Positions 2,014-64,000 of a stretch of DNA of 64,000 nt are shown here, in pieces; position 1 is the stretch's first letter, and the number at the start of each line of letters is the position of its first letter. A program made the translations under genes and the position numbers. The stretch is from Eledone cirrhosa (taxonomy: Eukaryota): positions 34,162,001-34,226,000 of the forward strand of contig OZ024755.1 of NCBI GenBank assembly GCA_964016885.1. The letters are read 5' to 3'. The notes beneath the pieces were generated by a model. The model did not search any database. It had not been told where the DNA came from and worked only from the letters and a program-made list of their open reading frames with translations.

Positions 2014-2113
2014 TGTCTGGTTTGTTTTATTTTTTGGTTTTTGTGTGTGTCTGTATGTCTTCATCTTGTCCTTAATTACTGGTTGTGATGTTACTATTCC
2101 ACTCGTTTTCAGT

Positions 2114-6236: not shown

Positions 6237-8100
6237 GTGAGAGATGGGGAGAGCGGCAGGGACGGAGGCAGTGAAAGTGGGAGTTTGGTTCCTTTGTGTT
6301 CGGACCTGGTGTATATGAGAGATGGGGAGAGTGGGAGAGATGGAGGCAGTGAGAGTTTGGTTCCTTTGTGTTCGGACCTGGTGTATATGAAAGATGGGGA
6401 GAGTGGGAGAGACGGAGGCAGTGACAGTGGGAGTTTGGTTCCTTTGTGTTTGGACCTGGTGTATATGAAAGATGGTGAGAGTGGGAGAGACGGAGGCAGT
6501 GACGGTGGGTGTTTGGTTCCTTTGTGTTCGGACCTGGTGTATATGAGAGATGGGGAGAGTGGGAGAGACAGAGGCAGTGACAGTGGGAGTTTGGTTCCTT
6601 TGTGTTTGGACCTGGTGTATATGAGAGATGGGGAGAGTGGGAGAGACAGAGGCAGTGACAGTGGGGGTTTGGTTCCTTTGTGTTTGGACCTGGTGTATAT
6701 GAGAGATAGGGAGAGCAGGAGAGATGGAGGCAGTGACAGTGGGGGTTTGGTTCCTTTGTGTTTGGACCTGGTGTATATGAAAGATGGGGAGAGTGGGAGA
6801 GACGGAGGCAGTGACAGTGGGTGTTTGGTTCCTTTGTGTTTGGACCTGGTGTATATGAAAGATGGGGAGAGTGGGAGAGACGGAGGCAGTGACAGTGGGT
6901 GTTTGGTTCCTTTGTGTTTGGACCTGGTGTATATGAAAGATGGGGAGAGTGGGAGAGACAGAGGCAGTGACAGTGGGAGTTTGGTTCCTTTGTGTTTGGA
7001 CCTGGTGTATATGAAAGATGGGGAGAGTGGGAGAGACGGAGGCAGTGACAGTGGGTGTTTGGTTCCTTTGTGTTCGGACCTGGTGTATATGAGAGATGGG
7101 GAGAGTGGGAGAGACGGAGGCAGTGACAGTGGGTGTTTGGTTCCTTTGTGTTCGGACCTGGTGTATATGAAAGATGGGGAGAGTGGGAGAGACGGAGGCA
7201 GTGACAGTGGGTGTTTGGTTCCTTTGTGTTCGGACCTGGTGTATATGAGAGATGGGGAGAGTGGGAGAGACAGAGGCAGTGACAGTGGGAGTTTGGTTCC
7301 TTTGTGTTTGGACCTGGTGTATATGAGAGATGGGGAGAGTGGGAGAGATGGAGGCAGTGAAAGTGGGAGTTTGGTTCCTTTGTGTTCGAACCTGGTGTAT
7401 ATGAGAGATGGGGAGAGTGGGAGAGACGGAGGCAGTGACAGTGGGAGTTTGGTTCCTTTGTGTTTGGACCTGGTGTATATGAAAGATGGGGAGAGTGGGA
7501 GAGATGGAGGCAGTGACAGTGGGAGTTTGGTTCCTTTGTGTTTGGACCTGGTGTATATGAGAGATGGGGAGAGTGGGAGAGATGGAGGCAGTGACAGTGG
7601 GTGTTTGGTTCCTTTGTGTTTGGACCTGGTGTATATGAGAGATGGGGAGAGTGGGAGAGACAGAGGCAGTGACAGTGGGTGTTTGGTTCCTTTGTGTTTG
7701 GACCTGGTGTATATGAGAGATGGGGAGAGTGGGAGAGACAGAGGCAGTGAGAGTTTGGTTCCTTTGTGTTTGGACCTGGTGTATATGAGAGATGGGGAGA
7801 GTGGGAGAGATGGAGGCAGTGACAGTGGGAGTTTGGTTCCTTTGTGTTTGGACCTGGTGTATATGAGAGATGGGGAGAGTGGGAGAGACGGAGGCAGTGA
7901 CAGTGGGAGTTTGGTTCCTTTGTGTTTGGACCTGGTGTATATGAAAGATGGTGAGAGTGGGAGAGACGGAGGCAGTGACGGTGGGTGTTTGGTTCCTTTG
8001 TGTTTGGACCTGGTGTATATGAGAGATGGGGAGAGTGGGAGAGATGGAGGCAGTGACAGTGGGAGTTTGGTTCCTTTGTGTTTGGACCTGGTGTATATGA
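6237..8100. repeat. 63-bp minisatellite, about 30 copies
   Basis: Unit ATGAGAGATGGGGAGAGTGGGAGAGACGGAGGCAGTGACAGTGGGAGTTTGGTTCCTTTGTGTTTGGACCTGGTGTAT family (the unit as written is 78 nt, matching the 26-aa period of the translated ORF, so about 24 copies of 78 bp is the better count). Confidence 0.6.
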
Positions 8101-8169
8101 ATATAGTTATTTACCACACCAGACCTTATAAAAGATCTAGCTGTATATTGGTATTTTAGTATATTGGTT

Positions 8170-8400
8170 GCTGGAAGATTATTCTTGAGCTTGTCTTTGT
8201 ACCTGAACCATACCACATTTCTATATCCACAATGAAGCTGGCTGTACAAGAGGACTCTTGGTAATTCTTGTCACAGATTCTGGTGATGTAACCAGCTCAG
8301 AGTAGTTGTGATTTCATACAAAAGGTCTTAATGCCTCCAATTCTGCCTTTAGTGAAGAGTTCAGTATTAGATATTTTGTCTTGGAGTGTGTACCCACATA
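8170..8400 (-). pseudogene. decayed RTE-like LINE 3' coding fragment
   Basis: Frameshifted minus-strand translation SNTELFTKGRIGGIKTFCMKSQLL*AGYITRI...LYSQLHCGYRN...RYKDKLKNNL resembles the RTE C-terminus (QLRWAGHxxRM). Confidence 0.65.
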
Positions 8401-12159: not shown

Positions 12160-12465
12160 GTTTACATGGATATCTGTGTGTTCACACCTTCTGATGAGGG
12201 TTTGACAATCAATTAAATGTGCCTATCATTTTTTTCTATTTACACAAAAATTTCTATTTTCTGTGATGTTTACATTCCTACTTATTAAATATGAGGTGTA
12301 TCCCCAAAATAAGGATACAGATGTTTTGTTTAAATGTATGAAATGCGTGATGCTGCATTTTTTTTTTTTTTTCTTTTATCGACTTCTGCCAATTTGCTAC
12401 CTACTTTATAAGCTATATTTATAACATTTCTGCGCTTGAGGACTTTCTTTATACTTTTATATATA

Positions 12466-12995
12466 TAAGAAGTTTAGGGAGCTGCTTCCTCTATTGACAA
12501 AGAAGGAGTTCACCTACAAACGAAAGGCTGGTTATATGATGCCTGTGTGAAATGCGCGATGCTGCATGGTAGTGAGACATGGGCAGCAACTGCGGAGGAT
12601 ATGCGATGGCTGGAGAGAAATAAAGCAAGCATGCTCCGTTGGATGTGCACTATCAATATGCGGGAATGACTAAGCATAGACGAGTTGAGAGAGAAACTGT
12701 GTATAAGAGGGATAAACTGTAGTGTGTGGGAGAGAAGACTGGGTTGGGATGGATAAGTGATATGCATGGAGGATGACCGCTGGGTAAAGAAGTACCAAGA
12801 AATCCCAGTAGAAGGAAGACGCAGTAGAGGAAGACCATGAAAATCATGGGCAGAGGTGGTGAGAGCTAACCTCAGATTGCTGAAGCTCACGGAGAAGATG
12901 ACTAATGACCGTGACAACTGGAGAGATGCTGTGCTGAATACTACCCGTCCCACCCTTGCAAGCAGGGAGAAGCGGACGTAAAATGATGATGATGA
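12466..12995 (+). pseudogene. 5'-truncated RTE LINE (3' end with (GAT)n tail)
   Basis: KKFRELLPLL...LYDACVKCAMLHGSETWA..EDMRWLERNKASMLRWMC is homologous to the C-terminus of the intact ORF; it ends in CCCACCCTTGCAAGCAGGGAGAAGCGGACGTAAAATGATGATG. Confidence 0.9.
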
Positions 12996-13334: not shown

Positions 13335-14790
13335 CGGCAGGAGGCTGAATTTAGAGCAAGAATTGCAGGGCTGGTGCAGTAATGCATCAGTTTCGGTATT
13401 CTGTAATCAGAAGAAGGGAGGTAAGCATAAAAGCCAAACTCGCTATCTTCAATTCGCTATTTATGCAAAAACTTACCTAAAGACATGAATCGTGGGTAAC
13501 GACCAAAAGGATATGATCGAGAATACAATTGGCCGAAATGGGATTGCTCCAAATGGTCTTTGGAGTAACGTTACTCAATAAAGTGCTCGGGGATTGATCA
13601 GAGAGTCGCTCCAGATAGTGCCATTACTTCTCTGAATTGAGAGACCACAGCTCTGATACTATGGACATGTGGTTAGAATGTCTCAGGAAGGAATTGCTGG
13701 AGGTATTTGCAGCTCAGAGAGCAGAGCATCTACTTCTCCAAGCTGAGAGATCACAGCTCTGATACTATGGGCATGTGGTTAGAATGTCTCAAGAAGGAAT
13801 TGCTGGAGGTATTTGTAGCTCAGAGAGCAGAGCATCACTCCAGATAGAGCCACTACTTCTCCAAGCTGAGAGATCACAGCTCTGATACTATGGACATGTG
13901 GTTAGAATGTCTCAAGAAGGAATTGCTGGAGGTATTTGTAGCTCAGAGAGCAGAGCATCACTCCAGATAGAGCTGCTACTTCTCCAAGCTGAGAGATCAC
14001 AGCTCTGATACTATGGACATGTGGTTAGAATGTCTCAAGAAGGAATTGCTGGAGGTATTTGTAGCTCAGAGAGCAGAGCATCACTCCAGATAGAGCCACT
14101 ACTTCTCCAAGCTGAGAGATCACAGCTCTGATACTATGGGCATGTGGTTAGAATGTCTCAAGAAGGAATTGCTGGAGGTATTTGTAGCTCAGAGAGCAGA
14201 GCATCACTCCAGATAGAGCCACTACTTCTCCAAGCTGAGAGATCACAGCTCTGATACTATGGACATGTGGTTAGAATGTCTCAAGAAGGAATTGCTGGAG
14301 GTATTTGTAGCTCAGAGAGCAGAGCATCACTCCAGATAGAGCCACTACTTCTCCAAGCTGAGAGATCACAGCTCTGATACTATGGGCATGTGGTTAGAAT
14401 GTCTCAAGAAGGAATTGCTGGAGGTATTTGTAGCTCAGAGAGCAGAGCATCACTCCAGATAGAGCCACTACTTCTCCAAGCTGAGAGACCACAGCTCTGA
14501 TACTATGGGCATGTGGTTAGAATGTCTCAAGAAGGAATTGCTGGAGGTATTTGTAGCTCGGAGAGCAGAGCATCACTCCAGATAGAGCTGCTACTTCTCC
14601 AAGCTGAGAGACCACAGCTCTGATACTATGGGCATGTGGTTAGAATGTCTCAGGAAAGAATTGCTGGAGATATTTGTAGCTCGGAGATCAGAGAATCACT
14701 CCAGACAGAGCTGCTACTTCTCCAAGCTGAGAGATCACAGTTCTGATACTATGGGCATGTGGTTAGAATGTCGCAGGAAGGAATTCCTAG
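13335..14790 (+). repeat. RTE LINE 3' fragment running into a 123-bp tandem array (about 9-10 copies) derived from LINE coding sequence
   Basis: Period 123 (TGCTGGAGGT at 13801, 13924, 14047...). The unit translates as IEPLLLQAERSQL*YYGHVVRMSQEGIAG. Confidence 0.9.
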
Positions 14791-15274
14791 ACAGATTAAT
14801 TAATAGATATTTAATTAACTGATGATATTTGCCGGCATGCAATCTACAGCGCCACTCAGGTCTTTGAGCATATGTCTTTTAATAGCTCTAACTTGTTGGG
14901 AATTTCATATTTTCAATTTTTATTTTGCAGATAAATGATGACAGACATAAAGTATGGAAGGAGTATTTGAGGACTCTGTCCCCACAGACCTCTCAGGAAT
15001 AAGTGGAGGACAACAACAAAGAAAACATCTGATCCAAGTCTGATTTAATTCTTACATTATTGTTATAAACCCTTTCATTACTATATTTTTATTGAAAGAC
15101 ACTGCCTATAATTTTCACATCAATTCGAAAATAATCAAGAGCTTGGCAGGATTTAGTAATATAACTATCTCTCTCAAGCTGGTATTTGGAGCCTAACAAC
15201 ATTTCTCACAGGAAATTATGATGGCAGGGTTTTAGATAACCATAAACTCTTTAAGACAGTTTCATATTGTCGAA

Positions 15275-23140: not shown

Positions 23141-23653
23141 GTGTAATATGAAAATATACTAAGAGCTAAATAGCTGTTCAGAAGTGCAAACAAAGTGTTA
23201 TAAATATAACAACCAAGACACAATACTGTGTTTAGGGTATTTAAATATAAGATGGTTTCCACTTGGTTGGAAACACTCATGTGATGAAAGAAGTGTAGAT
23301 TGTTCATGTCTGAAGCATCAAACACATCAGACGTCTACTGATATAGTTGATAAGTAAGAACAAAGTAATAATAATATTGTACAATATCATAATTGTTTCT
23401 ACGTTAGGCACAGGGCCAGCAATTACCCAGTGCATTACTGGTACTTTATTTTATCGACCCCGTAAGGATGAAAGGCAAAGTTGACCTTGTACAATATCAT
23501 AATACAACAAGCCTTGCCATACATCATACCTCGAGGATATAGTCTGCTACGGTCAGCTTAGAATCATGTCTATCAAATTAAATAATTTATTTCCATCATA
23601 ATTTCACTCACAAGATTGAGAGTTCAAACATTAGTTCTGTAAACTATTTTTAT

Positions 23654-24144
23654 ATAGAAATAAAAATGATATCGACACAGAAAAGATGCAATGCTCAGAC
23701 AAATTACAGAGGTGACAAAAATAGATGAACTCAAACCAAAATTAAAGAGTAAACATGAATGGAATAGCAACATCACAACTAGTAATTAAAGACGTATTAA
23801 AGACACAAAAACCAAACTAATAAAACAAATCAGACACAAATGAATAGAACAAACAACCAACTAGTAATAAGTAAATAAACACCATAAATAAATAAAACAC
23901 CCACACAGATACACTCAGATGTGCAAACCAAACACAACACAAAAAAACAAGATGGTGTAGGACAGAACAAAGGAGAGACACAAAATAAAAACTCAGTCAC
24001 TGAAGAGGTCACAGAATCTGTGACGAAAGCGTTTTGACAATATATAAACAACCATCAGTTATCGAACCAAACAACTGGAAATTTATAATAAATTGAAATG
24101 AAAACCAACAGGTGTGTGTTTTTATAGGCAGCATGACCCTCCCA
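23654..24144 (+). mobile_element. Penelope-like element 3' remnant (GIY-YIG endonuclease C-terminus, A/C-rich UTR, hammerhead)
   Basis: 23654-23788 reads IEIKMIS/RHRKDAMLRQITEVTKIDELKPKLKSKHEWNSN*, homologous to the peptide at 36105-36314, followed by a hammerhead at 23996. Confidence 0.7.
23996..24038 (+). ncRNA. minimal type I hammerhead ribozyme motif
   Basis: GUCA-CUGAAGA-G-GUCACAG-AAU-CUGUGAC-GAAA-GCGU-UU/UGAC: stem I 4 bp, stem II 7 bp, stem III AGCGUU self-complementary with G-U pairs. Confidence 0.8.
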
Positions 24145-24584
24145 CATCATCATCATCATTTCATTTTACGTCCGCTTTTCCCTGCTTGCAAGGGTGGGAC
24201 GGGAACTGGTTCTGGCTTGATTTCTACAGCTGGATGCCCTTCCTAACACCAACCTCATTTACAGTGAGTGCTGGGTGCTTTTTTGCCATGGCACCTCCAC
24301 GACCACTTTGCAGTGGAATGATAGGGACCCCAGTCGCTATCATCTCATTTCTACAGCTAAGTAAACTGGAGCAATGTGAAATAAAGTGTCTTGCTCAAGG
24401 AAACAACACATCAGCCAGTCTGAGAATTGAACCCACAACCTTTCGATTGCAAGGCCAATGCTCTAACCACTAAGCCATGTGCCTCCATCAGTATAACAAT
24501 ATATGTTTCAGATAAGAAATTGTGCAAAACAAATTCAAAAACGAAGTATTTTTACATATTTATGGATGTCTATATAAAGATAGT

Positions 24585-24812
24585 CAACAGAACTGCTGGA
24601 CAGGTTTTACAGGCAAAACCAACCGGCGGGAGATCCAGGGGTAGACACTGAGTAAGAAGGTTGGATAACATCCATGAGCTTGGCTAGTCTCGCTTGGGGA
24701 TCCAGCCAGATCAGTTGGAGTTGGTTGCTTCTGATAGGTCCCACTGTAAGAAGTGTTTGAAGATTCTATCCCCCACGACCCTTTCAGGAATAAGTGGGTG
24801 AAGAAGAAGACT
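24585..24812 (+). pseudogene. RTE LINE 3' end fragment
   Basis: RTAGQVLQAKPTGGRSRGR..., with a (GAA)n tail; homologous to 29390-29563 and 61920-62140 (-). Confidence 0.75.
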
Positions 24813-26894: not shown

Positions 26895-27665
26895 GACAAA
26901 AGAACCCAGCCCAAGCTATAAGGTGGTCATGTAGGTGTCACATCAGAAAGCACCCAGTCTACAAACTGTAAAGTGGTCATGTAGGTGTCATGACAAAAAG
27001 CACCCAGTCTAGACACTGTAAAGTGGTCATGTAGGTGTCACGACAAAAAGCACCCAGTGCTCACTGTAAAGTAGTTGTGTAGGTGTCATGACAAAAAGCA
27101 CCCAGTACTCACTGTAAAGTGGTCATGTAGGTGTCATGACAAAAAGCACCCAGTGCTCACTGTAAAGTAGTTGTGTAGGTGTCATGACAAAAAGCACCCA
27201 GTACTCACTGTAAAGTGGTCATGTAGGTGTCACGACAAAAAGCACCCAGTACTCACTGTAAAGTGGTCATGTAGGTGTCACGACAAAAAGCACCCAGTGC
27301 TCACTGTAAAGTGGTCATGTAGGTGTCATGACAAAAAGCACCCAGTGCTTACTGTAAAGTAGTTGTGTATGAGTCACAACAAAAAGCACCCAGTACACAC
27401 TATAAAGTGGTTATGTAGGTATCACAACCAAAAGCACCTAGTCCACACTGTAAAGTGGTCATGTATGAGTCATGACAAAAAGCACCCATACACACTGTAA
27501 ATGTGGTTGGTGTTAGGAAGGGCATCCCGCCATAGAAACCAAGCCAAAATCAGTTGTGTGTGAGTGAAACACGTCATCTGATCTGATTTCTAACAAAGGA
27601 GCAGCCTACCCTACCCATTCTAGCGTGGAAAATGGACATTAAATTATGATGATGATGATGATGAT
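26895..27665 (+). repeat. 48-bp tandem array (about 12 copies) expanded inside a SINE/RTE-tail element
   Basis: CACCCAG recurs at 27051, 27099, 27147, 27195, 27243...; followed by GGTGTTAGGAAGGGCATCC and a (GAT)n tail. A shorter array lies at about 42040-42280 (-). Confidence 0.9.
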
Positions 27666-34600: not shown

Positions 34601-36032
34601 TATGTCTGAAAGTATGTATGTAAGCACTACAGATGGGTTTTTGAACTTGTTTCTTTTATATTATAAAGCAATAGATTTTAAGATTTCATTCAAAGCACTG
34701 CCTTTAATTTCATTTAAACCACATTTGATAAAAAGCTGGGAAAAGCATTTGGTTTTGTTTTAATCAAAATATGAAGACAAAATTATGAATGTCAATGACA
34801 ACCATCTCAGAAAATTAATTGCAAGTGAGAATTATCAAACATCTTAACTAAGACATATCTTTAAAGTGTTCCAAATAACTATATTGGCATAATAATTACA
34901 AACACAAATAATTGTCCCCATGAAACTCAGATTTAAGATTCTTACTGATTCAAGTACTTGTACCAGTTGATACTACTTAATCCATTTGCAGTAATGAGAA
35001 AATAATGATTTCTGCTTCAGTTGCTCAATATATTATTATATGCAGTGTGATACTTTTATATGCCTGGCTTGAATGTCTTTACGAGGGAAATATTGTCATT
35101 AATCTAAGAAATATAGTGTGTTTCAAGAAATACGTTAGCAGAGAAATGGTTGACTCATTTGTTTCCCTATAGTATATAAACTGGCCATATCCGGCCAGAA
35201 TTCTCTCACCTCTTTCTGCTCAAAAACTGGCTGTAACCGGCCACTCATGTTGATGTTAAGGTATTGTTCTCAAAATAAATAATATCAAAATCCCATAGAT
35301 TCAATATCATGTGAGATAAAGCCTGTATTGTGAAAATACAATAGTATATATGAAGTAATGTAAATGATAAAAGGTTGAAGTACTCAAAAGTCTCTCACCT
35401 CTTTCTGTTTGTACCAGCTATAACTTTAAGGTATTGTTCTCAAAATGAATAATAACAAACTCTCATAGATTCGATATTATGGGAGATAAAACCTTTACCA
35501 TGAAAATACAATAGTAAATATAGAGTAATGTAAATGCTAAAGGGTTAAATCGGCCATATCTGGCCAGGATTCTTTCACCTCTTTCTGTTTCAACCAGCCA
35601 TAACTGGCTCTTCATACTGATGTTAAGGTATTGTTCTCAAAATAAATAATATCAAAATCTCATAGATTCGATATCATGTGAGATAATTAATTATATGAGG
35701 TAAAGCCTTTACTGTGAAAATACTATAGTACATATAGAGTAATGAAATGCTAAAGGGTTAAAGCAGAAGCAACAAAAGTGAGTGTAATTCTAGAGAAACA
35801 TACAGACATATGAATTTAACCCTTTAGCATTTACATTACTCTATATTTACTATAATATTTTAACAGTAAAAGCTTTACCTCACATAATTATCTCACATGA
35901 TATCGAATCTATGAGATTTTGAAATTATTTATTTTGAGAACAATACCTTAACATCAGTATGAGCAGCCAGTTTGAACAGAAAGAGGTGACAGAATTCTGG
36001 CTAGATACAACCAGTGATACATATATATATAA

Positions 36033-36330
36033 TCATTTCTATGTTTAGATATTATTCTAATTTCTATGTTACCGTCGTGTTGTTGTCTGGCATGTTCGTA
36101 TAGTACTGTACTATACGAACATGCCAGACAACAACACGACGGTAACATAGACAACATAGAAATTAGAATAATATCTAAACATAGAAATGACCCAGCAGAT
36201 AGGCAAATCAGAGAGGCCAGTGAAATAGAACTTAGAAGGCCAAGGCTAAACAGAAAGAATGAATGGAATAACAACAACACCCAAACAAACAACACTGACC
36301 TAAGAGAAGTATAAATAAATAAATACATAC
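36033..36330 (+). mobile_element. Penelope-like element, left part: 5' fold-back inversion and GIY-YIG C-terminus
   Basis: 36033-36190 is a palindrome. The right arm onwards reads VLYEHARQQHDGNIDNIEIRIISKHRNDPADRQIREASEIELRRPRLNRKNEW, a Penelope EN C-terminal pattern (H..H, R..E..I...P.LN..E). Confidence 0.7.
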
Positions 36331-37014
36331 AAATCATGTAAACGTAAGGTACAGACTTCATCTCTCTCTCCTCTCTCTCTCTCATTTCGTATTTCAAGTC
36401 CAAATAGCCATTCTATCGCTAAAACAAACTACATTTTCTGTTCCTATTAAGTGCTAAATACGTTTAGGTTTTTGGACGTATTTAACTGAACAAATTTTGT
36501 ATTTTTGTTAATCGCTTGTTAAATGCATAGACCTATCTCAATCATTACCTTCTTGCTAGCTATTTTCAAACCTTAATTCCTAACGTATTTTCAAACCCCA
36601 AAAAAAGCAAAATCCTTTCCTTCTTCCTTCTTCGAAGGCACGGGGCGGTCAAACGCCTAACACCCACAGCCATCATGTGGCCCCCTACCCTCGCACTCTC
36701 TCTCTCTCTCTCTCTCTCCCTATAAATATATGATAGGAATTCACTTCGCCAAATTTCATTTCTTTGCCTGCTGTCCGAACGAAAATCATGTAAACGTAAG
36801 GTACAGACTTCATCTCTCTCTCCTCTCTCTCTCTCATTTCGTATTTCAAGTCCAAATAGCCATTCTATCGCTAAAACAAACTACATTTTCTGTTCCTATT
36901 AAGTGCTAAATACGTTTAGGTTTTTGGACGTATTTAACTGAACAAATTTTGTATTTTTGTTAATCGCTTGTTAAATGCATAGACCTATCTCAATCATTAC
37001 CTTCTTGCTAGCTA
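36331..37014 (+). repeat. 232-bp direct repeat in the LINE 5' region (36331-36562 and 36783-37014)
   Basis: The copies look identical by eye from AAATCATGTAAACGTAAGG to CTTCTTGCTAGCTA; period 452. Confidence 0.92.
36721..36728 (+). promoter_or_regulatory. candidate TATA box within the LINE 5' monomer
   Basis: CCCTATAAATA after a GC-box-like GGGGCGG (36642) and a (CT)n tract, with Inr-like TCACTT and TCATTT downstream at non-ideal spacing. Confidence 0.3.
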
Positions 37015-37182
37015 CCCAACATCCCTCCCTCCCACCCCCACACACCACCATTGCTATTACGTGGACCAATCATAAAACAGCCCCCACGTATCACCAGTAT
37101 TATTACGCGGACCAATCAGAAACCAGAGGCCTATACTATCGCTTGCCTGGTTGCCTTTCGATATACGATATATGATGGATGG

Positions 37183-40100
37183 ATGGACTGCGGAATCCTG
37201 GAGAGTGGAGGTGAGAGAGAAAAATCTGGACGCTCAGCGACAATGCCAAAGATAAAGACAAATTCACCCCTTGGACGAGAATGCGAGCACTCCTCATTGT
37301 TTCGACCGCGGACGGCTAACATAACACCATCGCCCCCCGCCCCTCACCGCCCCCAACCCCCAAACGCAATCCAAAACTTCAGAGTTGGTACCATAAATGT
37401 AGGCACCCTAAAGGGTCGCGCTAACGAGGTTGTAGAAATGCTTGAACGTAAGGAGGTCGATGTTTGTTGTATTCAAGAGACCAGGTGGAGGGGTGGGTCT
37501 GCTAGGTTCATTGAGGGTAAAAAACGTTGTTATAAGCTTTTCTGGGTGGGAAACGACGATGGGCTGGGTGGAGTAGGAATCATGGTAGCAGAAAAGTGGG
37601 CAGATAAGATAATAGACGTAAATAGAGTGAACGACAGAATAATTAAAATACGACTTGTCCTCAATAGAACTACGGTGACAGTAATATCTGCGTACGCACC
37701 CCAATCCGGACTGCCCGGCACTATAAAAGACAGATTCTATGAGACACTGATGCTAACTACCTCCCAAATATCCGACAGTGACTATATAATTATCGCAGGC
37801 GACCTAAACGGTCACGTTGGACAACATTGTGACGGCTACGACGAAATCCATGGAGGCTATGGGTTTGGTACTAGAAATGAGGAAGGCTCCAGAATCCTGG
37901 AATTCTGTGATGCAAATAACCTAACTATCTGTAACACTAACTTCAAAAAACGTGACAATCACCTGATCACCTATAGATCCGGGGAACACACAAGCCAGGT
38001 AGATTATATCCTTACCAGAAGACGTGACAGAGTGTCTGTTGTTAACACTAAATCCCTCCCCCATGAAGAATGCACCTCCCAACATAGACTGATAATTAGC
38101 GACCTCATAGTCAGGACGAGACGTACTCGACAACAGAAGAGGACTATCCTCAGGAGGAAAATATGGAAGTTAAAGGACCCCACAGCCAGGAATAAATTTC
38201 AAAGCATATTACTTGATGCTTTCGACAGTAAGGAAGAACATTTAGAGTCGGACAATATAGAGGGAGAGTGGGAATTTCTGAAAGCAAACCTGCTGTTGGC
38301 GACAGACGAGGTCTGTGGCTGGAGCAGGCCTGTAGGCAGGAGGAGAGTAACATGGTGGTGGAACAGTAAGGTGGAGGGGTCAATTAAGGCCAAAAAGCAG
38401 GCTTGGAAAGTATGGCGGGATGGGGGAAGTAGAGAGGACTATCAAGTGGCCAGGAGGGAAGCTAGGAGACAAGTGTACTTAGCAAGAAGGGAAGCTGAGG
38501 AAAGAAAGTTCAAGCATGTTCTACAACGCGATGACCAAAAACGTGAGGTGTTCAGGATTGCTAGGCAATGCGTCAAGGAAAACCGTGATATTGTCGGGGA
38601 GAAGTGTGTACTAAACGACGATGGCACACTTGCCATCACCGACGCTGATAAGAAGGTAGCTTGGAAGTGTCACTATGAAAGGCTTCTAAATGAGGAGAAT
38701 AATTGGGAGAAAGGCAGTCTCCCCCATATCGACCCAATAGAGGGACCAGCAGTGTTAGTCGAGGGGAGTATAATAAGTAAGGCAATCAAGGATATGAAGA
38801 CTGGTAAGGCGGCTGGGCCTTCGGAAATAGTTGCTGAGATGCTGAAGGCATCTGGCACGGTGGGACACACCATGGTCACCCGCATAGTTAACCAAGTCGT
38901 ACAAAACGGGGTTGTTCCGAAGGACTGGCATAGCAGCATCATCGTTAACTGTTATAAGGGTAAAGGAGACGCCCTAGATAGGAGTAACTATAGAGGCATT
39001 AAATTAATCGACCAGGTCATGAAGGTCACGGAAAGAGTAATAGCGCAGCTAATCAGAGAGAGAATTGACCTAGATGAAATGCAGTTCGGGTTTGTGTCAG
39101 GCAAAAGTACCACAGACGCTCTTTTCATAGTACGACAACTACAAGAGAAGTACCTAGCTAAAGGTAAACCCCTCTACTTAGCTTTTGTCGACTTGGAGAA
39201 AGCCTTCGACAGAGTCCCCCGCTCCATTATCTGGTGGGCTCTTAGAAAACTAGGCGTTGACGAATGGCTTGTGAGGGCTATACAAGCCATGTATAAAGAA
39301 ACAGTCAGCAAGGTTAGAATTAACAACGAATATAGTGAAGAGTTTAGCGTAAAAGTCGGCGTCCATCAGGGCTCTGTTCTCAGTCCACTACTATTTATTA
39401 TTGCCCTTCAGGCCATAACAGAGGAGTTCAAGACAGGCTGCCCATGGGAACTCCTATACGCAGACGACCTGACACTCATAGCGGAATCAATGGCCGAGCT
39501 AGAGAAGAAATTCCAAACATGGAAGCACGGCCTAGAGTCAAAAGGACTTAAAATTAACCTGGCTAAGACCAAAGTACTAGTTTGTAGGAAAGAAAACAAG
39601 GCGGCGGTCCCTTCTGGGAAATGGTCGTGCTCGGTGTGTAGGAAAGGCGTAGGTAGAAACTCCATTTTATGTCCTAAATGCAAAGTATGGGTGCATAAAA
39701 GATGTAGTGGGATCACAGGTAGGCTAACTAAGAACATAGATTTTACATGTGGCCGGTGCTCTGGTGCAATAAGTAGCAGCAAGTGCCCACAAACTACTAG
39801 CTCTTTCAATTGCGCAGAGGGTTCTATAGAAATAGTGGACAGCTTCCGTTACCTGGGCGATAAAATCAGCAGTGGGGGAGGGTGCTCTGAAAGTACTGTA
39901 GCTAGAGTCAGAACTGGTTGGAAAAAGTTCAGAGAGCTTATACCACTATTAGCTGCTAAAGGGTTCTCACTAAAAATGAAAGGCAGGTTGTACGATGCCT
40001 GCATACGAACAGCAATGCTGCATGGCAGTGAGACCTGGGCATTGTGTGCAGAGGATATACGCAGACTAGAGAGGAACGAAGCTTGCATGCTCCGCTGGAT

Positions 40101-40413
40101 GTGTAACAGTAATATACGTGAACGGCAAAGCATAAACGAACTAAGGAATAAATTAGAGATAAGAGGGATCAGATGTTGTTTACTCGAGAGAAGGCTACGT
40201 TGGTATGGACACGTGATGCGCATGAAAGTCGATAGCTGTATAACAAAGTGCAGGGCAATAAAGATAGACGGTAGTCACGGAATAGGCAGACCTAGAAAAA
40301 CCTGGGACGAGCTGATAAACTCCGACATCACACACTTACACCTCTCCAAGACAATGTCACTGGACCGAGACCTTTGGCGGTACTCAGTAACAGAGAAGAC
40401 CCGCCTTACCTAA
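37183..40413 (+). CDS. RTE-clade LINE protein: APE endonuclease, reverse transcriptase and PHD-type zinc finger
   Basis: GTINVGTL, CIQETRW, SAYAPQ, AGDLNGHVG, QVDYIL, SQHRLI (APE); NYRGIKL, QFGF, FVDLEKAFDRV, GVHQGSVLSP, YADD at 39457 (RT); C4HC3 at 39628-39759. The frame is open from 37051; first ATG 37183, next 37243. Confidence 0.95.
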   Translation: MDCGILESGGEREKSGRSATMPKIKTNSPLGRECEHSSLFRPRTANITPSPPAPHRPQPPNAIQNFRVGTINVGTLKGRANEVVEMLERKEVDVCCIQETRWRGGSARFIEGKKRCYKLFWVGNDDGLGGVGIMVAEKWADKIIDVNRVNDRIIKIRLVLNRTTVTVISAYAPQSGLPGTIKDRFYETLMLTTSQISDSDYIIIAGDLNGHVGQHCDGYDEIHGGYGFGTRNEEGSRILEFCDANNLTICNTNFKKRDNHLITYRSGEHTSQVDYILTRRRDRVSVVNTKSLPHEECTSQHRLIISDLIVRTRRTRQQKRTILRRKIWKLKDPTARNKFQSILLDAFDSKEEHLESDNIEGEWEFLKANLLLATDEVCGWSRPVGRRRVTWWWNSKVEGSIKAKKQAWKVWRDGGSREDYQVARREARRQVYLARREAEERKFKHVLQRDDQKREVFRIARQCVKENRDIVGEKCVLNDDGTLAITDADKKVAWKCHYERLLNEENNWEKGSLPHIDPIEGPAVLVEGSIISKAIKDMKTGKAAGPSEIVAEMLKASGTVGHTMVTRIVNQVVQNGVVPKDWHSSIIVNCYKGKGDALDRSNYRGIKLIDQVMKVTERVIAQLIRERIDLDEMQFGFVSGKSTTDALFIVRQLQEKYLAKGKPLYLAFVDLEKAFDRVPRSIIWWALRKLGVDEWLVRAIQAMYKETVSKVRINNEYSEEFSVKVGVHQGSVLSPLLFIIALQAITEEFKTGCPWELLYADDLTLIAESMAELEKKFQTWKHGLESKGLKINLAKTKVLVCRKENKAAVPSGKWSCSVCRKGVGRNSILCPKCKVWVHKRCSGITGRLTKNIDFTCGRCSGAISSSKCPQTTSSFNCAEGSIEIVDSFRYLGDKISSGGGCSESTVARVRTGWKKFRELIPLLAAKGFSLKMKGRLYDACIRTAMLHGSETWALCAEDIRRLERNEACMLRWMCNSNIRERQSINELRNKLEIRGIRCCLLERRLRWYGHVMRMKVDSCITKCRAIKIDGSHGIGRPRKTWDELINSDITHLHLSKTMSLDRDLWRYSVTEKTRLT

Positions 40414-40805
40414 ATATATAGTAAAACCTACTCCAGCCAGTAGGCATCTCTAACAAATACACCCCGTCCCACCACCCCCACCCGATCCACACCACCCCGT
40501 TCTATGTAAAGTTATGTTGGTGCCGCGCCATCGAGGCCGAAACAAATGAGATCGTGTAGGTGTCACGACAAAAAAAACACACAGTCCACGCTGTAATGTG
40601 GCCGTGTAGGCAACACGGTAAAAACCTCCCAGACCCACACTGTAAATGTGGTTGGTGTTAGGAAGGGCATCCAACTGTAGAAAACCTGCCAGACAGTCCT
40701 ATGCGAGCAAGACAATCACTCTTGCCTCAAGTGGGACTACCCCCGTCCAAACCCATGCAAGCGTGGAACACGGACGTTAAACGCTGATGATGATGATGAT
40801 GATGA

Positions 40806-41345
40806 TACACAAGCACAATAACAACAAACACATATAAACACACACTAGTAAAGATAGAATATGTTAACCAATACACAGTCACCCAATCACGAACACACAT
40901 CAAACAAAACACTATACACACACGCAAACGCATGCGCAAAGAAGACAAAATAAAATAAACAAATAAATAAATAAATAAATAAATATATAAACAGACTAAA
41001 TAAAGATGGCGTAGAAAATACAATGTAACGGGAGGAAACAATAGCACCACTGACGATGTTGCAGATGTGCAACGAAAGAACTTTGATAAACTATATATAT
41101 GTGTTTGTGTCTATATTGTATCTGTATTATTTTTGACCGTTGGTCAGTCAATGGCAACATTGAGGACCGAATAAATTAGATTACCGATATAAAAGACACA
41201 GAAGCGAAAACCAACCAAACAGTGAGTGTGTTCTGTTATTAATTCTGGCAATAATACCCAAATATGACCCTTCCCAAGTATAACAATATTTGTTTCGACA
41301 CACGATTTCATATCAAAAACCTCGCAAAACTAATTCATCGCCGTT
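40806..41345 (+). mobile_element. Penelope-like element, right part (A/C-rich UTR/pLTR with hammerhead), ending at (TA)n
   Basis: Same order as 23790-24144: A/C-rich tract, hammerhead, AATAAA, GAAAACCAAC..GTGTGTT..ATGACCCT motif. Confidence 0.65.
41046..41087 (+). ncRNA. minimal type I hammerhead ribozyme motif
   Basis: ACCA-CUGACGA-U-GUUGCA-GAUG-UGCAAC-GAAA-GAAC-UU/UGAU: perfect 6-bp stem II; stem I has one C-A mismatch. Confidence 0.75.
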
Positions 41346-41351
41346 ATTATA

Positions 41352-41422
<71 letters not shown>

Positions 41423-48275: not shown

Positions 48276-48307
<32 letters not shown>

Positions 48308-48309
<2 letters not shown>

Positions 48310-48602
48310 AAGTTATGGTGGTACCACAACATCCATGCCCGAAACAAATGAGGTCGTGTAGGTGTCACGACAAAAAAACACACAGTCCACGCTGTAATGT
48401 GACCGTGTAGGCAACACGGTAAAAACCTCCCAGTCCACACTGTAAACATGGTTGGTGTTAGGAAGGGCATCCAGCCGTAGAAAACCCGCCAGACAGTCCT
48501 ATGCGAGCAAGACAACCACTCTTGCCTCAAGTGGGAAAACTCCCGTCCAAACCCATGCAAGCGTGGAACATGGACGTTAATCGATGATGATGATGATGAT
48601 GA

Positions 48603-48605
<3 letters not shown>
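48308..48605 (+). mobile_element. copy of the RTE 3' UTR/tail
   Basis: Highly similar to 40505-40805. Confidence 0.88.
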
Positions 48606-48633
<28 letters not shown>

Positions 48634-48874: not shown

Positions 48875-48977
48875 ATATAGATGAGATTCTACAGGACTAG
48901 AACTGTTTCATTCTTTGAAATTCCTGATGATTTCTAAAGAATGAAACAGTTCTAGTCCTGTAGAATCTCATCTATAT
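48875..48977. repeat. fold-back hairpin containing a hammerhead core remnant
   Basis: About 42-bp perfect arms; the loop and right arm read CTGATGA-TTTCTAAAGAAT-GAAAC...GTC. Confidence 0.9.
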
Positions 48978-49235: not shown

Positions 49236-49328
49236 ATTTTATTGGCAACATGACCCTCCGAAAGTATAACAATATAAATATATATATATATATTGCTATA
49301 CTTTCGAAGGGTCATGTTGCCAATAAAA

Positions 49329-51444: not shown

Positions 51445-53030
51445 ATGATAAACTTAAAATTAACAGATGACAACAAACTAAAATAAGGTAAGGGGACTGG
51501 AGATCTGCAGGGTTCTTCAATTCATTTCATCATCATCATTTCATTTCACGTCCGCTTTTCCCTGCTAGCAAGGGTGGGACGGGAACTGATTCTGGCTTGA
51601 TTTCTACAGCTGGATGCCCTTCCTAACACCAACCTCATTTATAGTGAGTGCTGGGTGCTTTTTTGCCGTGACACCTCCACGACCACTTTGCAGTGGAATG
51701 ATAGGGACCCCAGTCCCTATCATCTCATTTCTACAGCTGAGTAAACTGGAGCAATGTGAAATAAAGTGTCTTGCTCAAGGAAACAACACATCACACGGTC
51801 TGAGAATTGAACTCACAACCTTTCGATTGCAAGGCCAATGCTCTAACCACTAAGCCATGTGCCTCCACATTAGCCCTAGATATTCAGCTCTACTTACCAA
51901 GAGGACTAAATGCATTATACAATTGTATACAATGTATATCATGTATATACCATGTATTCCAAACATATATATGATGTATACCTAATGTATATACTGTCTT
52001 CCTAACATGTAAACTATGTATACCCAATGTCGATAAAAGTAAGTACCAGACACACACTGGGGTCGATTTAATCGACTTTCCCTTCCCTCCAAACATTGTT
52101 GGCCTTGTGCTTAAATCAGAAATTATTATTATTAGAGGGCGATGGATTGGCAGTATCGGTAGAGTCGGACACCATAATTTGCAGCAAAGAGTTACGGCCC
52201 TTTATGGTCTGAGTTCAAATCCTGCCGAGGTTAACTTTGCCTTTCATCTTTACGGGGTCGATAAAATAAAGTACCAGTCACGCACTTGGGTCAATTTAAT
52301 CGACTTTCCCCTCCCCAAAAATTGCTGGCCTTGTGCCTATATAAGAAACAATTATTATTATTACTATTATTGGTCTGATTGGACGTCCTTTTTCTCGCTC
52401 CCAGTAAGTTGCTTTATTTACCTGTTATAATTATTTGTTGCTTAATTTTTCTTGTTGTGTAAGGGATATAAGCCCTTGGACTTTGCCCTGTGAAGGGGAA
52501 AGTGTAATATTTGGTCCTTTTTTGCCCAAATATTTGATTAATATTTTAATAAATTAAATATTTTAAATATTTAAAGAAAGAAAAAAAAAAGACATGGCTG
52601 AGCCACGGCCATAACCCCCCCCCCCCCCCCCCCAGCAATATGTCTGCTGTCATGTGACAACGGCGTAAAAGTTGAGAGGAGGGTTACAGAAATTCATACA
52701 ACAGACACCACCACAGACATCGTGAACAAAGACAACAACACAGAGAAGACTAATTTTTTTTAAAAAATTACCACACCAACTACAACAATAACAGCGACAA
52801 CCAGAATACAGACAACAGAGAAAACTGACAACTACAACACCAACAGCAACAATACAAATTGCACCGAAAACAACAACAATGGTGGCACGAAAAACACAAC
52901 CAACTACAACAGTGATAACAGCAACAACACCAACAACACCATTTGTAGCAACAGCACCAACAAGACCAGTAGCAGCAGTAGCGGTAGCAATAATGGTGCC
53001 ACTGAAAAAGAGGTCACTTCTTTCGCAGGT

Positions 53031-53862
53031 GTGGCCCGAATTATAGAGACAGTGCTAGTCACGGAGGAGGAGATGGCAGTCGCAAGAGCCATGGTGTCGA
53101 GAAATGACAGTAGAGTTTACCTGAAACCTCCACCCGATTTCTTCAAAGACCAGCAACTGCGCACGGTGACTTACCGCACTGTAAGCAAAATGTCACAAAA
53201 GGCCCTGGGGTGCGTCTGGGCATGAAAAACCCATATCACCCGAGGCAAAAAGTACGCCACAGTAGATGTAGTTTTCACCACCCTGCAAGAGGCGAAGTCT
53301 CACTCTTTGGAAACTCTAAAGAGTGAGGAGATAGTCTTGGTGCCCTCCAACTGCGGGGAGAAAATTGTGAGGGTCAAAGTGACACAGGTTCCACCCGATG
53401 TGCCTACACCTTGGCTGGCCACGTCTGTACTTGCTGGAATTGAGGAGAAGACCACATTACTGCAAATACAGAGAATGGGAAGAGAGAACTGGTCAGGAAT
53501 AGGCATGCAAATGCTAATACAAACTGACCAGGAGTGCATCGAGGCCATCCCAGATATCATAGACCACGAGGAAGGACTCCAACTCCCTATAAGCATGGAA
53601 GGAAGGCGCCCAAAGTGCTATCTCTGTGGGCAGAAGGGTCACCTCAAGGCCTTCTGTCTGCAGAAGACAGCCAAGAAGAGAGAACCCTTCCTTCCGACAC
53701 CTGATTTGCTGCTACCAAGAGCAGGGCAGGCTACAGAGGCAGAAGACCCTTCAATGGTGAGTAGGAGGGCAACGTCCCTTGCACCCATACCAAGGCCACG
53801 GACAACTAAAACAGCAGCAGCAGTGGCGGCAACACTAACAGTTGCAGTAGCTACACCAGTGG

Positions 53863-53894
<32 letters not shown>

Positions 53895-53978
53895 GCCGGA
53901 ACGGGCTCCACTACCACCACCAACAGCAGTGGAGCTCATACTCCTCCCAGACGCCATGGAATCCGACATGGAGTATGA
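53031..53978 (+). pseudogene. L1/Tx1 ORF1 (gag-like) remnant
   Basis: CCHC knuckle CYLCGQKGHLKAFC at 53616-53657 preceded by MEGRRPK; frameshifted. Confidence 0.8.
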
Positions 53979-54511
53979 GACGGGAGGGAAGTGGCAAACG
54001 GTCTGCCACAAAAAAAAAGAAAAAAGAAAAAAAAAACCCTTAGCTTCACCCTCCAAAGGCGAAAGCCAACAAAGAGGGGTAAAGGCAGCAAGGAGTCTTG
54101 CAGCAACACCACCACCATCACTACCAACATCGCAAACACAACAAAACACACACACCAAACAGCAACAAAATCACCACTCCCTCAAAAAGTACACAGCCAT
54201 AAACATGGCAAATAGAAAAATCTTACAATATATAAAGCAGCACACAGACATCACAAAAAAAACACCCCACCAACACCAAGAACTCTCCCGAAAAAAATAA
54301 ACATCACTGAAATCAAAATAGAACATTACAAACTTTTAAAACAAAAATACACCAACGCAATTGGAGACTTCAAAGGGTAGGTTACCAAGAGGATATACAC
54401 CGACATCCTCTTGGAAACACCCATGACCAGCCAAAGGGACGGTTCTACTGTCCCTTCACCAGACGATCAAAGTAAGTGATCCTTTTCTACTTACCCTGTT
54501 TCTCATCCAGC

Positions 54512-55545
54512 ATGGCCGTACTTAGAATAGGCAGTATAAATGTACGTGGCCTGGGGTCATCTTGGAAGCAGGGTCACCTGCTCAACGACCTCAGGTCACT
54601 AAACATAGATGTGGTGGCCATCAGCGAGACCAGAATTCTCGAAGCACGAGCCTTTGCACCGATCTCCGGTGTCTCCGATGTATACACATCTCCCAGCCGT
54701 CCAGGATCGGGGGGAGGAGTTGGTGTGCTTTTTCGAAGAGGCTTGGATCTCGCCATACGGGCCATCTTACTGGATGTGACCGGCAGTGAAGGCAATGCTT
54801 TCAGGCAAGTAGCCATCTACGCCCCAACAGGGGCAGGATGGCCAGATTTCTTCAGACGTCAAGAGACCTTTCTTGGAACGTCCCGCTCTTTAGTGTTAGT
54901 GGGCGACTGGAACAGTATCTTAGATGCATGCTGGGATTATGTGGCGCTAGTAGACAGGTCAGGAGGGTGTAAAAGCCTCAACAACCTGCTCAAACATTTT
55001 GAACTGTCACACAGGTATAGACTAGAGTGCGTGCTCTAAGACACGAGGGGATGAAAGCTGTTCAATGGGCCCGGGTGGTGGAGGCGCGACGTGGCAACAA
55101 GTCCACAATTCGCGCTTTGCCTGATTAAAACAGGCGCATGTTGCTTGAACCCGAGCATATGTGTGCGGCTTTTCAACAGCACTGCTCAATTGTTCCGGAC
55201 CAGCGGCGGGCTGGATTGGTGTATGGATTTCAGTGCATACCTCAACGGACTGCCACAGCTATCGACGACCGCAGCGCAGTGCTGCAAACAGCCGATAACA
55301 GCAGGTGAAATATGGAAAGCGATGTCCGACTGCACGAGGGGTAAATCGCCAGGTTTGGATGATCTGCCCTACGAGCTTTATGCGTATATGCCAGACTTGT
55401 TCGGCGACCTCTTGGCAGATGTCTGTTGCAACTGGCAGCAGAACGGGAGCATTCCCAGTTTTGTGAGCTGGGGAGCGGTGGTGCTGCTGAGAAAAAACCC
55501 AAACAAGGGGGACGTTTTAGACAACTTCAGGCCTATAACTCTGAG
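54512..55545 (+). pseudogene. L1/Tx1 ORF2 remnant (APE and RT N-terminus)
   Basis: GSINVRGL, AISET, AIYAP, VGDWNSIL; then GKSPGLDDLPYELY...NFRPITL. The RT core is deleted. Confidence 0.88.
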
Positions 55546-56957
55546 AAGCAAGAATGGCCCGAGTGAATGGGCCTACTCTGAGTATGTGTCTGTAAATTAA
55601 AGGTGGAAAACTGGGAGAGGGCACTTGCCTTGGTGGTCAGGGTCACTGTGGCCTTTTAATGGGCTTTCTCCACAAATGTCCCTCCAAAGTCTCCCCCCTA
55701 TTGGGGAATTTTTCATTGTTATTTTTTTGTTACATCCTCTGTTTTTGTTTTTTACACGCAGAAATGCCCATTTGTACCGTCCTGTATTGTCCTGCACTGT
55801 CCTTAATGTTTACTTTATGTAAACCCTTGTGGTTAATAAAGAAATCATTATTATTATTAAAATAGGGCGGTGAATTGGCAGTATCGGTAGAGGGTTGGAC
55901 GCCATGCTTTCTAGCATAGTTACGTCCCTTTACAGTCTGAGTTCAAATCCCGCCGAGGTTAACTTTGCCTTTCATCCTTACGGGGTCGATAAAATAAAGT
56001 ACCAGTAATGTACTGGGTAATTGCTGGCCTTGTGCCTAAAGTAGAAACAATTATTATTATTAAAATAAAGTACCAGTAATTCACTGGGATAAATGCTGGC
56101 CTTGTGCCAAAAGTAGAAACACTTATTATTATTATTCCTTGGAAGTCTCACCCCTATTGGGGAATTTTTCATTGTTCTTTTATTACATCCGCTGTTTTTT
56201 TTTTTGTTTTTTTTTACACGCAGAAATGCCCATTTGCACAGTCCTGTATTGTCCTGTACTGTCCTTAATGTCTACTTTGTGTAAACCCTTGTGGTTAAGA
56301 AAGAAAGCATTATTAGTATTATTATTATTATCATCATCACTATTATTTTATATATTGTTGTTCTATCTTTGTATTTAGTTTATTTCATATCATATTTCAT
56401 GTTGTTTTATCTCTGATTTATTTTTGTACGTTAGTTTTGTTTTGTATGTTTCGTGTTGTTGGGGGCTTTTTTTTTGTTTCATTTCCATCTGAATGAATTG
56501 ATAAAAACTCCTGTGTGAGCTTGTTTGTCAAGATTTATTTTAGTTATATTTTATTTGTTTTTATTTTAATTATTTTATTTTCTATTGCTCTTTCATGGTT
56601 ATATTTTGTGTTTAATTTTGGAGTTGGTGAAACGTTAACACCATTGGTTATTCATGGGTAACTTATGAGAAATCCATATGATATCTTTGTTGATATTATT
56701 TTTCCTTGTTTTCTTCTTCAGAATTTTTGTTTCATAGATATCATACAGATTTCCGAAGAAGGAATAAAACACAAAAACAAAAAACAAACAAACAAACAAA
56801 CAAAGAAGAACCCAACAAAAATAATAGCTATACACCCTAAAAAATAACCTTACTTTTCACAGATATTTATAATCTATTTCATACAACTGTTTATACAATA
56901 GAAATTAATTTTCAAAATCTGTTCTTAACATTGTAATATCAGCACAGAAGCTACAAT

Positions 56958-63424: not shown

Positions 63425-63487
<63 letters not shown>

Positions 63488-63490
<3 letters not shown>

Positions 63491-63876
63491 TCATCATCAA
63501 CGTTTAACGTCCGTGTTCCACGCTTGCATGGGTTTGGATGGGGGTAGTCCCACTTGAGGCAAGAGTGATTGTCTTGCTCGCATAGGACTGTCTGGCAGGT
63601 TTTCTACAGTTGGATGCCCTTCCTAACACCAACCACATTTACAGTGTGGGTCTGGGAGGTTTTTACCGTGTTGCCTACACGGCCACATTACAGCGTGGAC
63701 TGTGTGTTTTTTTGTCGTGACACCTACACGATCTCATTTGTTTCGGCCTGGATGGTGTGGCACCAACACAACTTTACATAGAACGGGGTGGCGTGGATGG
63801 GGTAGGGGGAGGGGACGGGGACGGGACGGGGGGTATTTTGTTAGAGATGCCTACTGGCTGTAGTAGGTTTTACTAT
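63488..63876 (-). mobile_element. copy of the entire RTE 3' UTR
   Basis: Matches 40418-40805 from ATAGTAAAACCTACT to the (TGA)n tail. Confidence 0.9.
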
Positions 63877-64000
63877 GTATATATATGTGTATCATCATCA
63901 TCATAATCATCATTTTACGTCCACTTTTCCCTGCTTGCAGAGGTGGGACAGCAACTGATTCTGGGTTGATTTCTACAGCTGGATGCCCTTCCTAACACCA

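Follow-up and report, generated by a model that had tools for sequence, protein, structure and literature searches.

Inverted, 5'-truncated copies are typical of Penelope-like elements (PLEs), and the mechanism that generates them was called unresolved in the available part of PMC8557442. In Adineta vaga, the elements Pen2, Pen2a, and Pen3a carry inverted pseudo-long terminal repeats (pseudo-LTRs) with palindromes of 18 and 38 bp at the junction, and self-priming has been proposed for such palindromic PLE junctions (PMC3846280). The minimal hammerhead ribozymes of PLEs have an unpaired base 5' of a long helix II, and a single minimal hammerhead gave no detectable cleavage in vitro (PMC4209133). 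The hammerhead of an anole PLE cleaved only with the PLE protein, was dispensable for insertion in vitro, and showed no RNA sequencing (RNA-seq) ends at its site (PMC11167929). Among long interspersed nuclear elements (LINEs), microsatellite 3' ends are common in RTE elements (PMC9115989). These accounts, and those cited below, refer to the available excerpts of each source. Here we describe a locus at positions 36033-41345 of a 64,000-nt stretch of DNA from Eledone cirrhosa (GenBank assembly GCA_964016885.1, contig OZ024755.1, positions 34,162,001 to 34,226,000 of the forward strand; hereafter, the window), in which a LINE lies inside a PLE fragment that begins with a hairpin.

The locus probably represents two stacked retrotransposon insertions: a short, likely Nematis-type PLE fragment and a likely younger RTE-type LINE in its 3' untranslated region (UTR), with the PLE 5' hairpin likely produced by fold-back of complementary DNA (cDNA). 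The nested order given by a first-pass annotation of the sequence was confirmed, namely a palindrome of PLE sequence, the C-terminus of the endonuclease, UTR, the LINE, the continuation of the UTR, and a hammerhead (Table 1). The PLE fragment is dead, as reverse transcriptase (RT) is absent from the truncated copy, and its 3' UTR is interrupted by the LINE. Because the LINE is nested inside the relic, it is the younger of the two. Two details of the annotation were revised. The TA run at the left outer end is short (12 nt), but that at the right end is about 70 nt long (about 41347-41417). The 4.5-kb insert is present, but this length includes a 232-nt direct repeat and a 220-nt spacer at its 5' end.

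A second PLE relic without the LINE was found at about 23652-24600, itself split by a short interspersed nuclear element (SINE). The LINE and the SINE of the relic were removed in silico, and the two copies were aligned from the endonuclease to the element end. The joined flanks scored 307 against the relic, compared with 192 ± 12 (maximum 222.5) in 200 shuffles. The right flank alone scored 207 against the 3' part of the relic; two sets of 300 shuffles reached no more than 171 and 195.5, and the best of 492 other stretches of the window reached 161. Five landmarks occurred in the same order in both copies, and a gap-free block of 25 columns spanned the join. This alignment of the LINE-free relic across the insertion point supports contiguity of the flanks; they are collinear with the relic, and the non-contiguity that would speak against nesting was not observed. 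The pentanucleotide ATACA, present at 36327-36331 and 40805-40809, is a candidate target-site duplication (TSD) and may be that of the LINE, which leaves the exact join point uncertain by about 2 nt. As to the relic itself, the SINE-like insert is in reverse orientation (about 24144-24489), just past the start of the open reading frame (ORF), and a 29-nt inverted repeat (25/29) joins the relic ends at 23633-23661 and about 24566-24594.

The LINE has a stop-free frame (37012-40413) with the domains Exo_endo_phos, RVT_1, and PHD. A search for relatives gave 103 proteins at E <= 1e-50; the best of them shared the domain order and were 45-54% identical across most of the protein. All 11 motifs checked were present in the ORF, and against 56 relatives it departed at 6 of 206 conserved columns, two of them non-conservatively. 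The element had been called an intact RTE LINE, and it is intact at the sequence level. The RTE label is a likely one and comes from architecture: a single ORF encodes an apurinic/apyrimidinic (AP) endonuclease and RT, ORF1 is absent, and the tail is (GAT)7 rather than poly(A). Near its end, the AP endonuclease has Gln where Asp is usual; this was considered as a defect and rejected, as 55 of the 56 relatives have the same residue. A spliced N-terminal extension of the ORF was also rejected, since the sole upstream ATG is directly followed by a stop. No relative of the LINE was found in bacterial and archaeal genomes. Related sequences elsewhere in the window, at 63487-63883 (-), 48304-48607 (+), 12464-12995 (+), and other sites, comprise 5'-truncated pieces of the same family (372 of 398 and 274 of 299 identical columns), an older relative with 52% amino-acid identity, and many short repeats that have the GAT tail and 3' end of the LINE in common with it.

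The 5' end of the insert contains a direct repeat that was absent from the first-pass annotation. Two copies of 232 nt, A (36331-36562) and A' (36783-37014), are identical (100%) and enclose the 220-nt spacer B, and the insert begins with 1.5 units of a 452-nt repeat. Spacer B contains a GC box, a (CT)n tract, a TATA box, and, 30 nt after the TATA box, an initiator-like site. The spacer thus looks like an upstream-type RNA polymerase II (Pol II) promoter, which would be unusual for a LINE. The insert starts 32 nt downstream of the expected initiation point of an upstream B copy. Judged from these spacings, the leader is compatible with a transcript that came from a tandem array and was slightly truncated, the array being the element's own or a host array beside the source copy, and it is possibly a promoter monomer or a 5' transduction. 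An LTR element or a Helitron was rejected as the source of the A-B-A' block, as no matching termini, primer site, or 3' hairpin were seen by inspection. The literature searched described no promoter monomers of this type for RTE elements, which is a weak negative. Three short motifs from the window had no matches in the searched part of the supplements of PMC9115989.

For the A-B-A' block only, we lean slightly towards an explanation in which the block does not belong to the LINE family and was acquired once, by 5' transduction of a tandem host promoter beside the source element, or else is an assembly duplication. The complete identity of A and A', the resemblance of B to an upstream-type Pol II promoter, and the absence of further copies of A and B from the rest of the window all speak for this explanation. 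The position of the insert start is that expected for a transcript of tandem monomers, which speaks for a leader of the family's own, although it fits a transduction too. Misassembly is further opposed by the form of the block, since a simple tandem error would more likely give A-B-A-B. The repeated promoter-like leader is the best lead from this locus; if the TATA-bearing leader recurred in other copies, it would show how the LINE family keeps a promoter.

To the left of the LINE, a 70-amino-acid frame (36102-36311) gave 18 relatives at E <= 0.001 in a phmmer search of 1.84 billion proteins. These relatives aligned as the C-terminal half of the PLE endonuclease, in agreement with the GIY-YIG origin that had been proposed for the palindrome. 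Their alignment with the fragment showed invariant His, Asp, Arg, Gln, and Glu residues; most of the relatives ended shortly after the aligned region, and the YxDD motif of RT was found upstream in one of the 18. Pfam GIY-YIG matches were obtained in two of the ten relatives scanned, one of them above the cut-off, and a Pfam scan of the fragment itself gave no GIY-YIG match. A word-indexed protein search with the endonuclease fragment returned three candidates, none of them at E <= 0.01. In the ESM Atlas, the nearest named cluster was GIY-YIG, on 15% of its members and with a score of 0.90, and was taken as a lead only. Two weak matches to the fragment in bacterial and archaeal genomes were judged to be chance. 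The locus also has traits of endonuclease-positive (EN+) PLEs, namely a pseudo-LTR with a hammerhead that ends shortly into what would be the start of the ORF, an inverted 5' piece, and a (TA)n target. The hammerhead and the ATG-led frame at 41264-41345 are both common to the relic at 23652-24600. A third PLE fragment lies at 2012-2125 (-); it consists of the endonuclease end and the UTR start and is close to this relic in sequence.

The clade of the PLE was examined through the CCHH motif. The two His are present in the fragment and in 16 of the 18 relatives; the two Cys map upstream of the point where the fragment is truncated and can be seen only in the relatives. A short CX2-5CxxC linker, 6-8 amino acids before the next Cys, was found in 6 of the 18, and most of the others were too short or unmatched. 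When compared by eye with Fig. S2 of PMC8557442, the linker of the relatives resembled the Nematis rows and not the long Neptune linker. By this match, the PLE is likely Nematis-like. Hydra-clade endonucleases have no CCHH motif according to the excerpt of PMC8557442, and this clade was rejected on the His-x4-His present in the fragment. The Naiad clade, described there as having an N-terminal endonuclease and no canonical hammerhead, was rejected as well, as the endonuclease here is followed by a stop, the UTR, and the hammerhead.

The 158-nt palindrome at the PLE 5' end (36033-36190) was confirmed, with a left arm of 74 nt and a right arm of 83 nt around a central T. The arms have no substitutions, and their sole difference is a 9-nt gap in the left arm, which falls at an 8-nt direct repeat, AACATAGA (36144 and 36153). 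The palindrome folded as RNA at -113.6 kcal/mol (z -23), and none of 200 shuffles folded as well. Its 44-bp inner arm was the longest of eight non-simple perfect inverted repeats in the whole window (perfect arm of at least 14 bp, spacer below 40). Matches of the hairpin to microRNA families in Rfam were below the gathering scores and reflect only the long stem. The inverted arm ends within coding sequence and directly abuts (AT)n. The interval between the second His and the Asp is 19 residues long in all 18 relatives; because the right arm has this spacing, the 9-nt gap is a loss in the inverted (left) arm. At the hairpin center, the fragment has Thr and all 18 relatives have Ser. The center codon differs from either plausible Ser codon by one base, which would be the one imposed by the symmetry.

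The simplest reading of the codon at the center is that native sequence begins at 36106-36107 and that the fold-back used at most one pre-existing pair. The apparent overwriting of the serine suggests a fold-back with almost no pre-existing stem. An alternative is that this PLE family truly has Thr at the center, with a native 5-bp inverted repeat serving as the stem; such a stem is marginal (-0.2 kcal/mol as DNA). The first-pass annotation had taken the locus as direct proof that fold-back hairpins can arise from Penelope-like sequence. The hairpin is made of PLE sequence, but the fold-back itself is something we infer and is not shown directly. A different palindrome was seen at 49237-49328, where the PLE ORF-start motif is arranged tail to tail around a (TA)n spacer, a geometry opposite to that of the hairpin centered at 36107.

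The events that may have formed the locus were reconstructed from its end product. The PLE endonuclease would have nicked a (TA)n tract, and near 41345, about 80 nt past the beginning of the next ORF unit, reverse transcription would have been initiated. The cDNA would then have been copied for about 0.75 kb through the pseudo-LTR, the UTR, and the endonuclease C-terminus, stopping at 36106-36107. At this point, its 3' end would have taken the cDNA itself as template, with hardly any stem, or none, in place beforehand, and copied back 83 nt. Nine nucleotides would have been skipped between the two 8-nt repeats, or lost later, and the product joined to the upstream (TA)n. The LINE would later have entered by target-primed reverse transcription at an A/T-rich site, duplicating about 5 nt and bringing a 5' leader of 1.5 units of the 452-nt TATA-bearing repeat. 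The hammerhead would simply have been carried along with the PLE pseudo-LTR; the copy at this locus would be degenerate and have no real effect on LINE RNA.

Twin priming is an unlikely alternative source of the hairpin. A single broken PLE RNA would serve both nicked target strands as template; one strand would prime at the normal start and the other internally at 36190, and both cDNAs would run off the RNA 5' end to give a symmetric junction. The protein of the anole PLE, a predicted dimer, can cleave and extend both strands and initiate at internal sites that lack homology (PMC11167929), all of which would suit this route, and the L1 version of twin priming gives 5' inversions, 17% of them with internal duplication (10.1101/2024.08.27.596794). 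However, the junction duplications of L1 are short (median 22 bp) and deletions dominate (66%) in the same source, whereas the whole inverted segment is duplicated here, with exact symmetry. Initiation in PLEs is linked to positions close to the beginning of the ORF and not to the endonuclease region (PMC11167929), and the target has no complementarity to the RNA beyond 36190.

We consider it very unlikely that the hairpin came from host repair, after or apart from reverse transcription, by fold-back of a resected DNA end at the 5' junction. Fold-back inverted duplications do occur at yeast DNA breaks (PMC11724301) and near L1 insertions (10.1101/2024.12.14.628481), but the yeast products are mostly 5-34 bp and microhomology-based (PMC11724301), compared with an arm of 74 bp here. 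Palindromic junctions also recur in PLEs (PMC3846280), and the palindrome at 49237-49328 is a second PLE-derived one in the same window. A bolder proposal, which we regard as rather doubtful, concerns both elements: this RTE-type LINE family would retain an upstream-type TATA promoter in tandem 452-nt 5' monomers, a strategy like that of mouse L1 that evolved independently, and the PLE hairpin would be due to an RT that turns back on its own cDNA essentially stem-free, so that truncation would seed double-stranded RNA hairpins.

The same-strand hammerhead expected about 240 nt past the LINE tail was located, with its core at 41050, 243 nt after the tail, and a predicted cut after 41083. A strict motif scan found exactly two hammerheads in the window (24000 and 41050) and none in 100 shuffles. 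Rfam gave no hammerhead family at the gathering score or at E <= 10 and missed both motifs. In both, the CUGANGA plus GAAA core is present, with an unpaired base before a long helix II, as in minimal PLE hammerheads. Helix I of the 41050 motif has 3 of 4 pairs with a C.A mismatch, compared with 4 of 4 in the 24000 copy (4-5 bp in the minimal PLE type). Helix III of the 41050 motif is 2 bp long and not self-complementary; 4 of 6 positions pair, and the duplex is at +1.4 kcal/mol. Helix III of the 24000 copy is self-complementary, with 6 of 6 positions paired and a duplex at -3.7 kcal/mol. The active fold of the 41050 motif was not the predicted minimum. A comparison of the two hammerheads showed 3 of 12 pairs in which both bases differ; as 62 of 500 shuffles reached this, two sequences give no significance. 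A further hammerhead-like core at 48109 (-) has a long irregular helix II and fails the strict scan.

From these defects, the 41050 ribozyme is probably too damaged to trim LINE RNA. The stretch that separates the LINE tail from the hammerhead contains eight hexamers resembling poly(A) signals, and none (A(A/T)TAAA) was found in the LINE 3' UTR, which makes read-through plausible; the UTR hexamers may be leaky, with PLE RNA having to pass them in order to be copied. Read-through RNA of the LINE would meet a same-strand motif with a full catalytic core and a 6-bp helix II, yet the proposal that the hammerhead cuts this RNA at 41083, trimming or destabilizing it, is highly improbable in view of the helix I mismatch, the weak, non-self-complementary helix III, the unfavored active fold, the inactivity of lone minimal motifs in vitro (PMC4209133), the protein dependence and lack of RNA-seq ends of the anole element (PMC11167929), and the eight hexamers upstream of the cut site. 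No PLE hammerhead trimming a nested LINE was found in the literature searched. Such trimming would be interesting if true, but the evidence stands against it.

Several observations weigh against the account given here. The comparison relic is only about 70% identical and the UTR is of low complexity, so the join is not fixed to the base. The TSD is weak: because 8 of 14 other related tails also run into ATA, only 2-3 of its bases are informative. The Nematis label came from a comparison by eye and the RTE label from architecture, neither of them from trees. A 1-nt loop is physically impossible, and the hairpin tip needs a native 4-bp stem (-0.2 kcal/mol), untemplated bases, or later editing; the identity of the arms could also have been kept by later conversion. 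Helix II of the 41050 hammerhead is intact, with two compensatory changes between the copies, and weak protein-assisted or trans cleavage is conceivable. The U at the cut site was considered as a defect and rejected, since 10 of 26 Hydra hammerhead rows have U.

Table 1. Features of the nested PLE and LINE insertions, in window coordinates.
Feature	Position	Strand	Basis
Left (AT)n target remnant of the PLE insertion	36021..36032		Sequence
Inverted arm: copy of endonuclease coding sequence 36108-36190 minus 9 nt	36033..36106	-	Arm alignment; spacing in 18/18 relatives
Hairpin center; codon 36105-36107 is Thr, Ser in 18/18 relatives	36107..36107		Symmetry; relatives
C-terminal half of PLE GIY-YIG endonuclease, open to the stop; native sequence probably from 36106-36107	36102..36314	+	Relatives
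Start of PLE 3' UTR; 36327-36331 is the left copy of the candidate LINE TSD	36315..36331	+	Repeat search
Repeat A, 232 nt, 5' end of the insert, identical to 36783-37014	36331..36562	+	Repeat search
Spacer B, putative promoter: GC box 36643, (CT)n, TATA box 36721, initiator-like site 36751	36563..36782	+	Motif positions; spacing from sequence
Repeat A' (second copy); donor-like GT sites near start and acceptor-like AG at end, putatively for splicing	36783..37014	+	Repeats, motifs
LINE 5' UTR with two CCAAT boxes (37066, 37112)	37015..37182	+	Motifs
LINE ORF, 1076 amino acids from first ATG, frame open from 37012: AP endonuclease, RT, PHD finger	37183..40413	+	Domains, motif check
LINE 3' UTR and (GAT)7 tail (40786-40806); related 3' ends recur in the window	40414..40806	+	Sequence comparison
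PLE UTR/pseudo-LTR resumes; candidate TSD, right copy, at 40805-40809; eight A(A/T)TAAA hexamers at 40949-40999	40805..41045	+	Alignment, motifs
Hammerhead, type I, minimal, with cleavage predicted after 41083: core 41050, bulged U, helix I with a mismatch, helix II of 6 bp, helix III of 2 bp	41046..41087	+	Motif scan, folding
Likely beginning of the PLE ORF (~27 codons), with which the pseudo-LTR closes; element ends near 41345	41264..41345	+	Translation; motif also at 24133 and 49247; role suggested by excerpts of PMC3846280 and PMC11167929
Right (TA)n target	41346..41417		Sequence

Other features of the window were also recorded. Just left of the PLE lies a dispersed repeat of about 200 nt (35815-36015). 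The window has over 10 copies of it, and its initial part also forms 70-72-nt tandem arrays near 2.1-2.6 kb and 30.8-31.4 kb. Minisatellites were found at 6191-8200 (78 nt), 13600-14883 (123 nt), and 26918-27584 (48 nt), and the 48-nt unit resembles part of the LINE 3' UTR. A decayed LINE of another type at 53226-55600 (+) has a zinc-knuckle-like motif, an AP endonuclease match, and RT-like pieces in separate frames. A perfect 42-bp inverted repeat with a 19-nt spacer lies at 48875-48977. A tRNA-like (transfer RNA-like) match at 51792-51860 (-), just at the Rfam gathering score, is probably a SINE head.

Compared with the octopus element RTE-2_OV, the LINE described here likewise has a single ORF with an AP endonuclease, RT, a C-terminal zinc finger, and a microsatellite 3' end (PMC9115989). 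RTE-2_OV has an ORF of 1109 amino acids, a C2H2 finger, and UTRs of about 600 nt (PMC9115989), whereas the ORF of this LINE encodes 1076 amino acids when counted from the first ATG and includes a PHD finger; the 3' end is 393 nt long, and the leader, which contains an internal repeat, measures 852 nt. On the published figures, the two elements are not the same. As in mouse L1Md (PMC6454616), promoter-bearing units are arranged in tandem at the 5' end of the LINE and the first one is truncated; it differs in belonging to another LINE clade and in having 1.5 units of 452 nt with a TATA box, known from a single copy. The 41050 hammerhead is like the minimal PLE hammerheads in being type I, with a short helix I, a long helix II, an unpaired base 5' of helix II, a tiny helix III, and a location in the pseudo-LTR (PMC4209133), but it has a mismatched helix I and a non-palindromic helix III, defects that are absent from the 24000 copy.

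The PLE resembles Nematis in its C-terminal endonuclease with His-x4-His-x-Gly spacing and in relatives with CCHH and a short CX2-5CxxC linker (PMC8557442, Fig. S2); unlike Nematis, the fragment has no RT and no linker, and we infer its membership through the relatives. It shares with EN+ PLEs such as Pen2, Pen2a, and Pen3a of Adineta vaga (PMC3846280; PMC8557442) a 5' truncation, a C-terminal GIY-YIG, a pseudo-LTR that ends a few codons into the ORF, a head-to-head inversion with a junction palindrome, and an AT-rich target. An all-coding, exactly symmetric arm without the element 3' end was not found in the literature available in part to us, which is no proof of absence, and the available part of PMC12910113 does not treat PLE junctions. 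Inverted PLE 5' ends with palindromic junctions are already published, and the locus is a clean example of this known behavior. In the Adineta vaga PLEs, the inverted piece is a pseudo-LTR or a 5'-truncated copy and carries the element 3' end (PMC3846280), whereas here it consists of 74 nt of endonuclease coding sequence only, with an internal end and exact one-base symmetry. Such an exactly symmetric junction inside a coding sequence, overwriting a conserved codon, is a pattern that can be counted genome-wide, and such a count could separate fold-back from twin priming.

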